A stretch of DNA of 64,000 nt from a virus. Taxonomy: Duplodnaviria > Caudoviricetes. Positions 23,051-30,653 of this stretch are shown one piece after another. Location: the IMG/VR virus record IMGVR_UViG_3300031555_004294, positions 1-64,000 of that record; one strand, given 5' to 3'. Made by a program: the position numbers and the translations under genes. Position 1 is the first letter of the stretch; every line of letters begins with the position of its first letter. The notes beneath the pieces are model-generated. The model saw only the letters and a program-made list of their open reading frames with translations. It was not told the origin of the DNA and ran no database searches.

Positions 23051-24335
23051 CAGGTTATTTTGTATAGTACGTGAAGCTATACATTCTTTACATATCTGTA
23101 AAGTTTAGACTATATCTTTACCATTTTAATGAATGGTATTCTTTATAGACGTAATACTTAATACGCCAATAGTCGTTGGACCTAGCTATACTAGGATGCT
23201 GATTGTCTTTTGAGTTTCCAGCAATTAAAAGAATTTATATTATGGATTCAGCACAGTTATTAAAAAAGTCATCTAATAATTTTTCAATATCAGACATCTC
23301 TTTATATGAGATGCGGATAAAATTCATATTATTTTCAATTGCCCATTCATCTTTAATTCTATCATGCTTTTGAGTTTTTTCAAGATTTTTTATTTTATTT
23401 TCTTTAGTTGAACCATATGATGGTTCAAAATGTTGTTTTCCATCAAACTCAATAAGCATATCATAGGATTCTATATAAAAATCAAATGGCAATGGTAAAA
23501 TATCTCTACAATCTTTAAAACAAACTTCTTTTTGATATTCGATATTTCGAGTTTCTAAATACTTTGTTATCATTCTACTTCCTAATGATTCACCTAATAT
23601 TTCATTGCATCTTGGACACCTAGCATTATGATTTATAAATTCATTTGGACTACAATCGTATTCATGATTGTTACAAATATCTGAAAAATGTTTCATTTTT
23701 ATTGGAATCTTACAGTCAATATATTCATCAGCTATGACTGTATATTCTTTATCCGTTAGGTCTTCAACCTGCTTTTTATATTCTTCAAGAGTAGGTTTTA
23801 TAGTTCCATAACAATATTTACAGCCTTTAGATATTTTATCGTGAATCATATCATTAGCTTTTGGATACCATACTTCCCCACATTTTTTACAAAGGACAGC
23901 TATATTAGTATGTACCTTACTAAAAGGTCCTACGATTTCATAGACATCTATAGACCAACGTGAATAAAATCGTTCTTCATATTCTTGTTGTGTCATAGGT
24001 TTATTACCTCTATGAGATACCTTACGTTTTTTATAAAAAAATGCAGGATCTCCACATGTCCCTTTATCATCTAAGTAACGTGGTTTAGTATTCCAAATAT
24101 GTCCATCTTTATGTCTTAATGCAATATCTCCTCTAGCACCTTCAGGTGGATATGGAGTTATAAGCGTATAATCAGGATAATGTTTTTTAATTCTATCTTT
24201 TAGAATCTCTTCTCGTTGTTTTAAAGTTTTAGTAGCACCCATGTAATCAACTCCTTTTAATAAAATTAATAATTTGTTGCATGAGTGGTTTTTCTTTTTT
24301 GTAAATTATTAGACTTAGCTTAAAATTTCGGGTTT
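23051..24335 (-). mobile_element. Group I intron (IA-like) carrying a homing endonuclease, second intron of the prohead protease
   Basis: P AAUUGCUGGAA (23216-26), Q AAUCAGCA (23197-204), R GUCCAACGACUA (23170-81), S AAGAUAUAGUC (23108-18); exon ends in U, intron ends in G; removal restores SMRGFG|PVS. Confidence 0.9.
23235..24242 (-). CDS. Intron-encoded homing endonuclease, CxxC repeats plus EDxHD/Vsr-like nuclease domain
   Basis: LPFDFYI...IEFDGKQH...HD.IK....IRI; CKKC, CKYC and CPRC; own AAGGAG RBS. Confidence 0.8.
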   Translation of the reverse strand: MGATKTLKQREEILKDRIKKHYPDYTLITPYPPEGARGDIALRHKDGHIWNTKPRYLDDKGTCGDPAFFYKKRKVSHRGNKPMTQQEYEERFYSRWSIDVYEIVGPFSKVHTNIAVLCKKCGEVWYPKANDMIHDKISKGCKYCYGTIKPTLEEYKKQVEDLTDKEYTVIADEYIDCKIPIKMKHFSDICNNHEYDCSPNEFINHNARCPRCNEILGESLGSRMITKYLETRNIEYQKEVCFKDCRDILPLPFDFYIESYDMLIEFDGKQHFEPSYGSTKENKIKNLEKTQKHDRIKDEWAIENNMNFIRISYKEMSDIEKLLDDFFNNCAESII

Positions 24336-26912: not shown

Positions 26913-26979
26913 AAAGGAGGAAATCATACACTGGATTTGATCTCTTTCGATCAAATTACGTATGATATTTAAACTTATG
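26913..26979 (+). promoter_or_regulatory. Hairpin-bridged ribosome-binding site of the major capsid gene
   Basis: AAAGGAGG (26913-20), stem-loop 26921-26969, ATG 26977 seven nt after the stem. Confidence 0.65.
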
Positions 26980-28643
26980 TCTATTGAATATCGTCAAACA
27001 GCTCGTTCTAGAATGAACGATGGTTTCTCTGATGTATTAAGAGAAGCAGCTGAGTTCTTTGCTAACAAAGGCATTCAGATGACTTCCCATCAGGGTATGG
27101 AAGAAATTCTATCTGAGCAGACTCTCTTCAATGAGTATAAAGATCACTTACTTGAAGGTATGGAGCCTGACCAGGTTGAAAACTTCAATCAACTTATGGA
27201 CAACGCTCGTACCAGCATGCTTCAGGAAGCATCTGTATCTGGCGTTCAGCAAATCGCTGGCTTATCTATGCCTACCATTCGTAAGATGTGGGCAAAGGTA
27301 GCTCTAAAGCATGCTATTCCTACTCAGGTTGTTGCAACTCCTCGTTTTGCTATTTCTTACACCAAGGCATACTTAATGGATGCTGAAGGCAACAAGAAAG
27401 AGCTTCCCGATGCTATCAATAATCTAAACAACAGAGAAGCTCAGCTTCCTAGATTCGTTAACCCTGCTGATGGTCTTGTACTTCCTATGATTGACTTCGA
27501 CCTCTATGCTAATGGTTTCCCACAGGTTCCTGCTCTAAAAGGCACTGACACCATTGACAAGGTCTTCTATGTTGAGACTGTTAAGGTTAACAAGGCTGCA
27601 GTTCAGGCTGCTGCTCAAGCTGCTGAACAGGCTGCTGCTGGTAGCATGAATGGCTATGCAGGTGGTGACATTGATGAGATGACCATTCGTGTTCACATCA
27701 AGACCGACCTGAATGCTCTTATTTCTGCTCGTGTTGCTATTCCCGTTCAGTTAACTGATCCTACTACTGGTGTAGTTACTAAGTACGGTGAAGTTTACGA
27801 GACTCTACTTGGTCGTGTTGACTATGCAGATGGTAAGTTCACTTTAATGTCTTCTGGCAACATGATTACTCATGCATTTATTGATGCTCGTCTCTCTCAA
27901 GAAGCAAATGACTACGGTCAGTCTGTAAGCTTCGACGTTCTTACTAAGGACGTTACCATCGGTGTTGGCAGCCACCTGAATGCTCCTCTGCCTATTGAGT
28001 GGCTTCAGGATACTATGGCTATCTACAATATCGATGGCGCAGCTGAAGTTGTTGACTTAATGTCTCAGACCGTTGCTCAGCAGCTTGAAATTGAGATTTA
28101 CAACTTCCTTAACAACTCTATCGAAGTAAATAACATTCAGTACTTAGGTGAGTTCAATATGATTCCTTCCGCTGGTTACAATGGTACTCCTAAGAGCTGG
28201 CGTGAAGAGCTGAAGACTGTCATTGACTACTATGCAATCAAGATGAAGTCTGATGCTAAGTTCCACGGTGGTAAGTTCATGATCATTGGTAACCCCATTG
28301 ACATGCAGATCATTCCTAACGTTGACTGGGTATTCAACCACACTTCTGACCAGATGTCTGGTGTTGATGTATCCTTCAACCTTGGTGCTTTCTCTGGTGC
28401 TAACAAGTATGAGATGGTTTCTAGTGACCTAGTTCCTGCAGGTGCGTTCATTATGTTCTTCGTACCTGGAATTGATCGTCTCATGACCTACAAGTACTAT
28501 CCTTACACCTTTAACGTAGAAAGAGGTTACCGTGATCCTAATATGCCTAACGTTCCTAGTCTTATGATGACTAAGCGTCATGCACTTGAGGAGTTCACTC
28601 CCCTTATCTGCCGTATTACTATCAAGAATAATATCGGTGCCGT
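26977..28643 (+). CDS. Major capsid protein (T4 gp23-like), exon 1
   Basis: MLQE-AS putative cleavage site; E..QD..A...ID...E...LMS pattern; YKYYPY....P...P..MMTKRHA C-terminal motif; strongly biased codon usage. Confidence 0.85.
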
Positions 28644-28868
28644 TAACAAATATAGCGGTTTTATGCAGAAATGCATATCAAATCTAAAAGAATTGCTGGA
28701 AAAGCTATTGCCAATCAGCATCCTTAGAAATAAGGTTCAACGATTAAGTGTCGCATAAGTTTGCGATCTGTATTTAGAATCCAAAAGCGAGAAATGGATT
28801 ATGATATAATCTCTACTTCTATGAAAATAGAAGACTGACATCTAACAAATGTCAAACTAAGATATTAG
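28644..28868 (+). ncRNA. ORF-less group I intron at the 3' end of the capsid gene (3' splice site at G28861 or G28868)
   Basis: P AAUUGCUGGAA (28691), Q AAUCAGCA (28713), R GUUCAACGAUUA (28735), S AUGAUAUAAUC (28801) with a compensatory P7 pair; P1 GCCGU/GCGGU with U.G. Confidence 0.85.
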
Positions 28869-28890
28869 ACCTCAGACTCCTGGATATTAA
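28869..28890 (+). CDS. Major capsid protein, micro-exon 2 (V-PQTPGY-stop if spliced at G28868)
   Basis: GT|A CCT CAG ACT CCT GGA TAT TAA is in frame and followed by a terminator; the alternative splice gives VY-TAG. Confidence 0.5.
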
Positions 28891-28927
28891 TCTAGGAATT
28901 CTTAATAGAGTATAGCTAGATATATTG

Positions 28928-28962
28928 ATCCCCTATTCCTTAAATGGAATAGGGGATTTTTA
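28928..28962 (+). terminator. Intrinsic terminator after the capsid gene
   Basis: ATCCCCTATTCC-TTAAAT-GGAATAGGGGAT followed by a T-tract. Confidence 0.8.
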
Positions 28963-29036
28963 TTTGTTAAAAGAGAACAAAAATATATATTATACACCTG
29001 GTTATAAAAATAAGAAATATAAGAAAGGAAAATAAT

Positions 29037-30032
29037 ATGAGTAATAAAAATGCAAAGGGTTATGTTCCTCCTATGACAGATAAAGAATTTAGAGATTTAG
29101 TTTATAGTTTAGTGGGAGATGAGTATACGGTTTTAGGAAAATATGTGAAAACTGATGTAAAAATTAAAATGAGGCATAACACATGTGGACATCAATATGA
29201 AGTTACACCAAATAAATTTCAACAAGGAAGAAGATGTCCAAAATGTTATGGAAATAAAGAAAGAACTTTAGAAAGTTTTAGAGAAGAAATCAAAAACCTA
29301 CCAGATGGAGATGAATACGAATTACTAAGTGTTGAGTGTAAAGATAACAAAACACCAATGGAATTTTTCCATAAAATATGTGGTGAAAAATTTAAAAAAC
29401 CAACTGTTGGATTCTTAACAAATCCAAAGAATAAAGCAAATACTAGATGTCCTATATGTTCTAGACAATACCAAGTAATTAATCATCCAAATAGGTTATC
29501 TTATGAAGATGTTAAGAAAATTGTTGAAACTAAACATTCTGGTGAATATAAACTTCTTTCAGACAATTATAAAAACACTAAGAGTTTGATAAAAATCTTA
29601 CATATTGGTGGTTGTGGTAGAGACTTCGATACCGATATAGACCATTTCAAAAGAAAAGACTATAAATGTCCAAGATGTAATGAATCTGTAGGTGAGCAAA
29701 GAGTAAGAAAAGTCTTAGAAAGTAGAAATATAGAATTTATACAGCAATACAGATTTAAAGACTGTAGAGATAAAAATCCTTTACCATTTGATTTTTATAT
29801 TCCAGCTTATGATCTTTGTATAGAGTTTGATGGTATACAACATTACGAAAAAGCTAATTTTGGTTCTTATGCAGCTGACTTAGATACAATTCAATTACAT
29901 GATGAAATCAAAACTAACTATTGTTTAGATAACAATATTGGTCTCATACGAATTAGTTACAAAGACTTTGATAATTTAGAAAAAGTTTTAAAGAAAGATC
30001 TAAATGAATATCTTAAGGAGTTAGATATATGA
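29037..30032 (+). CDS. Free-standing homing endonuclease, CxxC repeats plus EDxHD/Vsr-like domain
   Basis: CPRCNES.GE...FKDCRD..PLPFDFYI...IEFDG.QH...HD.IK; clearly paralogous to 23235..24242. Confidence 0.8.
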   Translation: MSNKNAKGYVPPMTDKEFRDLVYSLVGDEYTVLGKYVKTDVKIKMRHNTCGHQYEVTPNKFQQGRRCPKCYGNKERTLESFREEIKNLPDGDEYELLSVECKDNKTPMEFFHKICGEKFKKPTVGFLTNPKNKANTRCPICSRQYQVINHPNRLSYEDVKKIVETKHSGEYKLLSDNYKNTKSLIKILHIGGCGRDFDTDIDHFKRKDYKCPRCNESVGEQRVRKVLESRNIEFIQQYRFKDCRDKNPLPFDFYIPAYDLCIEFDGIQHYEKANFGSYAADLDTIQLHDEIKTNYCLDNNIGLIRISYKDFDNLEKVLKKDLNEYLKELDI

Positions 30033-30262
30033 CCTCACCCTACCCTTTCATCAATAATACCACTATCAACTCCCACAAACTCTTCCCAATATGTCCTATC
30101 TGTAATAAAGAACTCATCATACAAGTCTCACTTACTAATAACGATGGTAATACAGCTAGTTTATGTAGTTGTACTAACTGTTCATCAGGTCATGATGAGG
30201 ATTGGGAAATTATTTGGAATGATACTGAAGTTATTAGTGTCGAGAAGTACTATTTTGGATAA
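30029..30262 (+). CDS. Small Cys-rich (zinc-ribbon-like) protein
   Basis: CPIC and CSCTNC; AAGGAG RBS; ATGA overlap with the upstream gene. Confidence 0.55.
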   Translation: MTSPYPFINNTTINSHKLFPICPICNKELIIQVSLTNNDGNTASLCSCTNCSSGHDEDWEIIWNDTEVISVEKYYFG

Positions 30263-30326
30263 AAATTCGATAAAGTATTAAAAATGTATGAAAAACAATA
30301 AAATAAAAAGATAAGGAGTAAGTATT

Positions 30327-30653
30327 ATGGGATGGTTAGACGCAAAAACATTTTATAAAAGTGGTGATAAGCCTAGATTTAAAGTAGGCGATAAGGTATT
30401 TAAGATAGTTGAAATCCGCCCCAATATATTAAAACGAACTTTAAGATTCTGTGTTGAGTATACTGTTGAGGAAGTATCTAGTAAGAAGAGCGGTTTATTT
30501 TTTAAAGAATTTACTTATGTAATTAAAGAAGTTGGAACTGATAAATTATATGATGGTATATATGAATCAGAATTATTTACAGAGTTTAAACATATTGATA
30601 ATCCTAATACTGATGATCCTGACTGGTGGCTGGATTATTTTAATTTTGAATGA
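30327..30653 (+). CDS. Hypothetical protein (SH3/KOW-like FKVGDKV motif)
   Basis: TAAGGAG RBS; 108 aa. Confidence 0.6.
   Translation: MGWLDAKTFYKSGDKPRFKVGDKVFKIVEIRPNILKRTLRFCVEYTVEEVSSKKSGLFFKEFTYVIKEVGTDKLYDGIYESELFTEFKHIDNPNTDDPDWWLDYFNFE

Follow-up and report, generated by a model that had tools for sequence, protein, structure and literature searches.

A predicted ORF-less group I intron within the last seven codons of the major capsid protein gene of an uncultivated AR9/PBS1-like jumbo phage

Introduction

The closest described counterparts of the intron studied here are those of AR9/PBS1 and other jumbo phages. In AR9, they interrupt g114 (protease) and g189 (RNAP beta), and the protease gene is annotated as two joined pieces. 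Together with the introns of the 'Jug' gut phages (PMC12880540), they have a length of ~200 nt, mostly lack an ORF and are found in late genes with essential functions. The endonuclease genes are either stand-alone or intron-borne, and in AR9 early promoters drive them (PMC5312081). In jumbo gut phages, some 18 group I introns, small and without ORFs, occur in each genome beside numerous stand-alone endonuclease genes, and splicing of the introns was seen in metatranscriptomes (PMC12880540). The locus described here resembles the AR9/PBS1 and 'Jug' systems in intron size, in the lack of an ORF, in its late host gene and in its endonuclease genes. It differs from them in its position, only six codons from the stop, and in having no early in-frame stop; furthermore, no intron is annotated in the major capsid protein (MCP) gene of the AR9/PBS1-like records that we examined.

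The td, nrdB and sunY introns of T4 (subgroup IA2) are a second point of comparison. They share with our intron a P7.1-type extra pairing, peripheral hairpins capped by GNRA loops, the U·G wobble at the 5' splice site and omega-G. The T4 introns encode endonucleases, and the reading frame that enters them meets a stop almost at once, whereas the intron described here is ORF-less, has a single P7.1 hairpin and a P5 of 2 bp, forms no P10 for the functional acceptor and is read into by its host gene for 37 codons.

A third comparison is with collaborative homing pairs, represented by the psbA intron of cyanophage S-PM2 with F-CphI and the T4 nrdB intron with MobE (PMC3984707, PMC6083498, PMC2790892). 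Here too, an ORF-less intron at a conserved site lies adjacent to a free-standing endonuclease gene. These known endonucleases are Endo VII-like or HNH, in contrast to the predicted Vsr/EDxHD-type fold at our locus, and in the relatives of our phage intron and endonuclease occur apart.

Results and discussion

The phage and its major capsid gene

The window, i.e., the whole 64,000-nucleotide stretch that was analysed, is part of the IMG/VR virus record IMGVR_UViG_3300031555_004294. This record has 156.9 kb, is 61% complete and belongs to an uncultivated AR9/PBS1-like jumbo phage. The capsid gene, its intron, the terminator hairpin, the early promoter and the free-standing endonuclease gene described below all lie on the plus strand.

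The MCP shares 41% identity with the MCP of the Bacillus phages AR9/PBS1, and 7X30 is a solved homologue (E 8e-93). The MCP ORF as listed spans 26962–28758 and encodes 598 aa, run-on included. It matched PHROG 20655 "major head protein" (8.7e-148) and also Pfam Gp23. Because the PHROG match is confined to residues 6–565, nothing in the family corresponds to the final ~35 residues. At the other end, the first ATG of the ORF is at 26962, and the methionine of MSIEYRQ (ATG 26977) follows five codons later. The MCPs of relatives begin at this second methionine, and thus the true start is probably ATG 26977.

With the PHROG and Pfam matches and the homologue N-termini as evidence, exon 1 was placed at 26977–28643. 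Its last two bases are the GT| of Val codon 561. Exon 2 (28869–28890) contributes the one base that finishes this Val codon, followed by PQTPGY and TAA. A strong terminator-like intrinsic hairpin of 13 bp with a T run (28927–28958) closes the capsid transcript.

Identity and fold of the intron

The stretch between the exons, 28644–28868, is by its sequence and predicted fold a genuine group I intron, which interrupts the MCP gene within its final seven codons. It has 225 nt, a G+C content of 32% and no ORF of its own. We assign it to an IA-like subgroup, with G28868 as omega-G. The presence of a group I intron at this place had been proposed in a first-pass annotation, and the proposal held up in an Rfam match, in a complete helix check and through an orthologue in a related phage (see below).

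The Rfam model RF00028 covered positions 28634–28833 over the full model length, with 44.7 bits (E 6.1e-10 in a 1-kb search and 2.3e-11 per genome). This score does not reach the gathering score of 50, and other introns of the same genome scored 55–57 bits. When the whole window was scanned with Rfam at gathering stringency, the MCP intron and two stronger introns were missed, and a 5-kb scan with an E-value cut-off missed two introns of 55–57 bits. The misses in long stretches occurred because the speed filters lose AT-rich introns. Introns were searched instead in short stretches (600–1000 bases) and by genome-level model searches. Whole-genome cmscan counts of introns will be too low for such AT-rich phages.

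P1 (28639–28659) is formed by 28639–45 and 28653–59, with seven of seven pairs, between exon GCCGU plus intron UA and the internal guide UAGCGGU. U28643, the base just before the 5' splice site, forms a wobble with G28655 in P1. P3 pairs 28683–88 with 28773–78, and P5 has only 2 bp. The P7 region (28742–28811) consists of P7 itself (28742–46/28807–11, GAUUA/UAAUC) and encloses P7.1, the 3' strand of P3, and P8 (28779–99). P7.1 is a single, intact hairpin (28750–67) between P7 and the P3 3' strand. A scripted helix check found that P1, P2, P3, P4, P5, P6, P7, P7.1, P8, P9 and P9.1 all pair without mismatch, and GAAA loops cap P2, P6 and P9. Within P7, a bulged C28741 adjoins the pair G28742-C28811, which we take to be the G-binding pair, by analogy with G264-C311 of Tetrahymena. 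The minimum free energy z-score of the intron was −4.1, and an unconstrained fold recovered the local hairpins.

RNAalifold was applied to the MCP intron and three sister introns, two from the prohead protease gene in the window and one from the MCP gene of a relative (L008). It found P4, P5, P6, P7, P7.1 and P9, with compensatory double changes in 16 of the 36 pairs. In P7, the MCP intron has changed a C-G to a U-A pair relative to the three sisters. This is a true compensatory change, in agreement with the earlier description of GAUUA/UAAUC as a compensatory P7.

A search of the rest of the genome and of GenBank phages showed core similarity and no close copy of the MCP intron. When IMG/VR was scanned for patterns of the GAUUA-type P7 core and of P9/P9.1, only the known intron of L005/L008 and chance matches came up. 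Judged from its sequence, the MCP intron is of an ordinary group I type and probably active, and its position is unusual yet has precedent; we infer that it splices efficiently in vivo. These findings leave current concepts unchanged.

Splice junction

Joining 28643 to 28869 produces an MCP that ends in ...IGAVPQTPGY*; the product end predicted for the spliced MCP is the peptide ...NNIGAVPQTPGY. All 31 full-length MCP relatives (53–86% identity) end in GY, nearly all of them in VPxTxGY. The intron-less relatives P0002–P0009 have 82–86% identity to our MCP, and in P0003–P0009 the end of the protein is identical to the spliced end, so that the comparison with intron-less homologues called for by the first-pass annotation agrees with one of the two junctions that it had named, the one at G28868. 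Exon 2 is identical to L008 in 20 of its 22 nt and to the relative L054 in 21 of 22, and the differences are all synonymous. From the conserved ends of the relatives, the 3' splice site was placed at G28868.

Among the U...G combinations, 28643/28868 is the sole one that gives the MCP end of the relatives exactly. A junction of the G28868 type is also the only one to yield the same conserved product in the window phage, in L054 and in the intron-less relatives. Omega-G is present, and exon ligation at G28868 restores the end of the host gene. A P9.0 of 2 bp (28814–15/28866–67) fits G28868 and is kept in L054. No P10 between the guide and the 3' exon could be formed for G28868.

The 3' tail of the intron (28855–28868) contains a cryptic acceptor candidate, G28861. 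Bases 28861–67, at the end of the intron, repeat the last bases of the gene, 28883–89, in the same register; the two copies stop one base short of the end, at the terminal G of the intron and at the last A of the stop codon, respectively. The probability of an in-register match of at least 7/8 here is about 0.0016, calculated post hoc. In L054, the two corresponding ends are likewise similar (GGUAUAG vs GGUUAUUAA). We considered that the last seven intron bases might be a remnant of the 3' exon of a donor (...AVY*). This idea does agree with the P10 potential and the in-register repeat; it was rejected, since no donor MCP was found and the L054 tail differs.

An orthologous intron at the same site

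Direct searches with the MCP protein in IMG/VR and JGI metagenome contigs yielded no intron at the same site. One was reached through a truncated-looking MCP match (P0021), which led to the JGI contig Ga0307249_10444662, here called L054. The third MCP intron of this contig (L054:2461-2690; RF00028, 33.7 bits) lies at the identical site, after ...NNVGSV and within the Val codon (GT|). It is 83% identical to the window intron and retains both the unusual GAUUA/UAAUC P7 and the UAG|ACC acceptor.

All 58 base pairs of the window intron were followed into L054: 47 were unchanged, three had changed on one side to another standard pair, seven were compensatory (five in P7.1 and one each in P2 and P5) and one was an apparent break. 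The break results from the alignment, because P8 is extended on both sides. Between the two phages, the exons are 78% identical at the DNA level and the intron 83%. Together with the compensatory changes, this makes the insertion look old and its fold under selection. By these comparisons, the intron is a long resident common to at least one diverged relative, apparently retained by selection on RNA structure.

The run-on of the capsid frame

The capsid frame continues into the intron from 28644 to 28758, for 37 codons and a TAA (28756–58) in the P7.1 loop. The run-on peptide has a net charge of +5. The first-pass annotation had counted about 38 codons and noted that this reading, up to a stop at 28758, hides the intron; the ORF listed as 26962–28758 and the public gene calls bear this out. 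In the public calls, the run-on product of 593/598 aa appears on at least seven contigs. These MCP entries carry a false tail of 37 residues and miss the true conserved end, the right product being exon 1 plus PQTPGY.

A UAA directly follows the 5' splice site (28644–46). It is out of frame because the intron is inserted in codon phase 2. The run-on spans P1 to P7, and each of its bases is accounted for by RNA helices. In L054, the P1 loop has an indel of 1 nt that puts the ribosome into another frame from intron codon 2 onwards, and the run-on stops after 13 codons, with its UAA in a P3 strand, as against 37 codons in the window. Neither the sequence nor the length of the run-on peptide is thus conserved, and the peptide is not under selection.

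The sister introns are read into for one codon (protease intron 1), six codons (protease intron 2) and one codon (MCP of L008), and the other two MCP introns of L054 for zero (intron A) and eight codons (intron B). Among 27 arbitrary frames of nine intron matches, three were open for at least 35 codons, which puts the length of the window run-on within chance. As read from these comparisons, the run-on of 37–38 codons is a lineage-specific accident that gene callers have taken as coding.

According to reviews, the frame that enters a bacterial group I intron is in most cases closed by a stop soon after the splice site; ribosome entry is expected to disturb folding and, as a rule, to hamper splicing (PMC3073962, PMC3984707). 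The window intron is atypical in this respect. Since it lacks the early in-frame stop, ribosomes could unfold P1–P7 on translated RNA. It can be entered by ribosomes for 112 nt and could serve as a natural case for measuring how far translation into the ribozyme core harms splicing. At its start, the intron does not encode a substitute in frame for the displaced C-terminus with a stop behind it. A likeness of the first run-on residues, NKYSGF..., to the capsid end of Bacillus phage BpSp was considered as a tail mimic and rejected: the codons are P1 loop and guide, the likeness was picked among about 90 tails, and the frame read in L054 is a different one.

Proposed splicing route and alternative readings

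The best explanation for the whole locus, to which we give a probability of roughly 0.85, is a group I intron that has no ORF, is selected for its structure and is spliced at 28643/28868, with a run-on that has no coding role. Guanosine would attack after U28643, which the guide UAGCGGU keeps in place in P1. Exon 1, now free, would then attack after omega-G28868, joining GT to A-CCT... and restoring ...VPQTPGY*. The intron's own UAA would be left out of frame by the phase-2 site, and the next stop would have been removed in the window lineage by an insertion of 1 nt in the P1 loop. The position of the intron would reflect homing-endonuclease traffic in the intergenic region just downstream. 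Counted against this reading are the Rfam score (44.7 vs 50 bits), the lack of a P10 for G28868, when a P10-like pairing is present for G28861 and G28883, and the missing early in-frame stop, which would let ribosomes unfold the core. No MCP product of the spliced type from the window strain was found in the protein collection.

If G28861 or G28883 were used appreciably as acceptor, the MCP would end in ...IGAVY*, with a TAG stop in the case of G28861. The pairing potential is there: AAUAU (28649–53) can form a P10-like pairing of 5 bp, offset by 1 nt, with AUAUU (28862–66) behind G28861, and equally with the AUAUU behind G28883, a candidate that the first-pass annotation had not listed and where splicing would also give ...AVY*. 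The end of the sister intron of L008 aligns with the window stretch that ends at G28861, and some distant MCPs are short-tailed, such as that of Staphylococcus phage SA1 (...GSVYAR) and 7X30, which extends five residues past the aligned NNNG. Yet an end in ...AVY* is at odds with the GY of every full-length relative of at least 53% identity, and with an exon 2 that has varied at synonymous sites only. The equivalent of G28861 in L054 would give ...V-YR-PQTPGY* instead of ...AVY*, and an acceptor in the canonical P10 register would there give an out-of-frame product. P9.0 agrees with G28868 in both phages, and G28883 lies within a hairpin of exon 2 and the 3' UTR. We therefore consider appreciable use of either acceptor unlikely. 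The first-pass annotation was right about the TAG ending and the better P10 of G28861, but a role of G28861 as a real alternative acceptor is not supported. Another reading takes the intron as dead for splicing, with the phage living on the 593/598-aa run-on MCP that the public gene calls imply. A score under the Rfam cut-off, a very short P5 (2 bp) and the absent P10 could be cited for it. The core helices and the G-binding pair are all intact, however, compensatory evolution since the split from L054 speaks for continuing selection on the fold, and both phages have an undamaged exon 2 in the right phase, all of which leaves this reading with hardly any credibility.

The remaining readings give the run-on a function. 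Minor capsid proteins with C-terminal extensions are known, namely 10B of T7 and A1 of Q-beta. By analogy, retention of the intron might be used: unspliced mRNA would produce an MCP with a basic tail of 37 residues and a role in the virion, and splicing would set the ratio of isoforms, as the first-pass annotation had suggested. The open frame and the charge of its tail are consistent with this, as is the missing early stop, in which the window intron differs from its sisters. Translation into the intron is also expected to compete with folding (PMC3073962). Against it, the orthologue in L054 keeps the fold and loses the frame after two codons; open frames of this length occur in about one of nine arbitrary frames of these introns; and the helices P1–P7 fully explain the sequence. 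The extended tail would be a lineage-specific novelty at most. On the sequence evidence, control of the capsid isoform ratio by splicing is not supported, and we hold used retention to be very improbable. A restricted version would apply to the window lineage alone. Here the P1 loop, with its insertion of 1 nt, would have opened the frame through half of the ribozyme; translation ahead of splicing would prevent folding and yield a minor tailed MCP, a very young and accidental analogue of T7 10B and Q-beta A1 that selection is perhaps using. This, too, is quite improbable. An extended capsid protein may arise by accident, and we saw no sign of its use. We thus retain the reading of a spliced, structure-selected intron.

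Introns in the 3' region of capsid genes

In three related phages that occur together, the 3' region of the MCP gene is a dense hot spot of introns, with four sites, after ...SFNLG, ...GIDRL, ...DPNMP and ...G(A/S)V. L054 has three group I introns within the last ~100 codons of its MCP gene (L054:1690-2700; RF00028 scores of 28.6, 52.7 and 33.7 bits), separated by exons of about 50 and 33 codons. L008, a relative of 83% identity, has a 235-nt MCP intron after ...GIDRL (L008:5512-5746, the same as in L005; 57 bits), in which a stop follows one codon in. The intron-less P0003 is 98.8% identical to the exons of L008, so the presence of an intron is polymorphic among nearly identical phages.

In the window, two further group I introns split the prohead protease gene on the minus strand (24771–24531, and 24335–23051 with its core at 23271–23086). 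The second of them contains an ORF for an endonuclease of 335 aa (24242–23235), which shares 33% identity with a free-standing endonuclease encoded at 29037.

The downstream endonuclease cassette

This free-standing homing endonuclease gene (29037–30032; PHROG 559, 1.6e-73) is a neighbour of the MCP intron and lies outside it, starting 168 nt downstream. Its product is predicted to consist of repeated zinc-ribbon modules and a C-terminal nuclease domain of the Vsr/EDxHD type. Sequence searches against the PDB gave no match for it, and it was placed by fold search alone. Its AlphaFold model has a pLDDT of 78, and the best Foldseek match was the catalytic domain of I-Bth0305I (3R3P; TMt 0.75, E 1.3e-3), along with Vsr (1CW0). 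The alignment of the endonuclease showed an invariant E..G..H..K block.

Upstream of the gene, at 28981–29000, lies an exact copy of the AR9 early promoter consensus, which is recognized by the virion RNA polymerase (consensus from PMC5312081). It is the only exact match in the window; three matches with at most one mismatch were found vs 0.29 expected. A late-type motif, AACA-N6-TA, at 28976–87 overlaps the early promoter. Going by the promoter sequence, the endonuclease is probably made early and the preceding capsid gene late.

Homologues of the endonuclease follow the MCP gene in L006, L007 and L008, and a paralogue is the one inside the second protease intron. L054 has no endonuclease after its MCP. 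DNA homology to L054 continues past the terminator hairpin to about 28987, and the next gene of L054, directly after the MCP terminator, matches the window ORF at 30327–30653. The stretch ~28988–30300 is therefore an insertion absent from L054. It comprises the promoter, the endonuclease gene and an overlapping ORF of 77 aa that is rich in CxxC (30029–30262).

Across the relatives, intron and endonuclease are not a constant pair: L054 has the intron without the endonuclease, and L006 and L007 show the opposite, with endonucleases and no detectable group I intron in the record. In the genomes compared, the endonuclease cassette is thus separable from the intron, as far as their sequences tell. 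Both might still be connected in a way that complements the structure-selected intron and does not exclude it. The intron could be kept because it splits the target of the downstream endonuclease, in the manner of collaborative homing or self-immunity, and this would explain the clustering of introns at the 3' end. The known homing pairs are precedents, and the locus offers an endonuclease gene of predicted Vsr/EDxHD type under a separate early promoter so close to the intron, members of the same family as next neighbours of the MCP gene in L006, L007 and L008, four intron sites within the last ~100 MCP codons of three phages, and alleles with and without intron that are 98.8% identical in protein (P0003 vs L008). 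The separate occurrence in L054 and in L006 and L007 counts against it, and we regard this connection as a reasonable but tentative possibility. The last ~100 MCP codons in the AR9-like clade are a natural system for intron gain and loss beside free-standing endonucleases.

The genome of the window phage contains at least four or five group I introns, and up to nine matches were found in a relative with a genome of 320 kb (G002). One of the latter (L038; G002:C1:66462-66669) is a group I intron of 56.7 bits, into which the upstream frame seems to stay open for 54 codons. This frame may be another long run-on or the result of a mis-set boundary.
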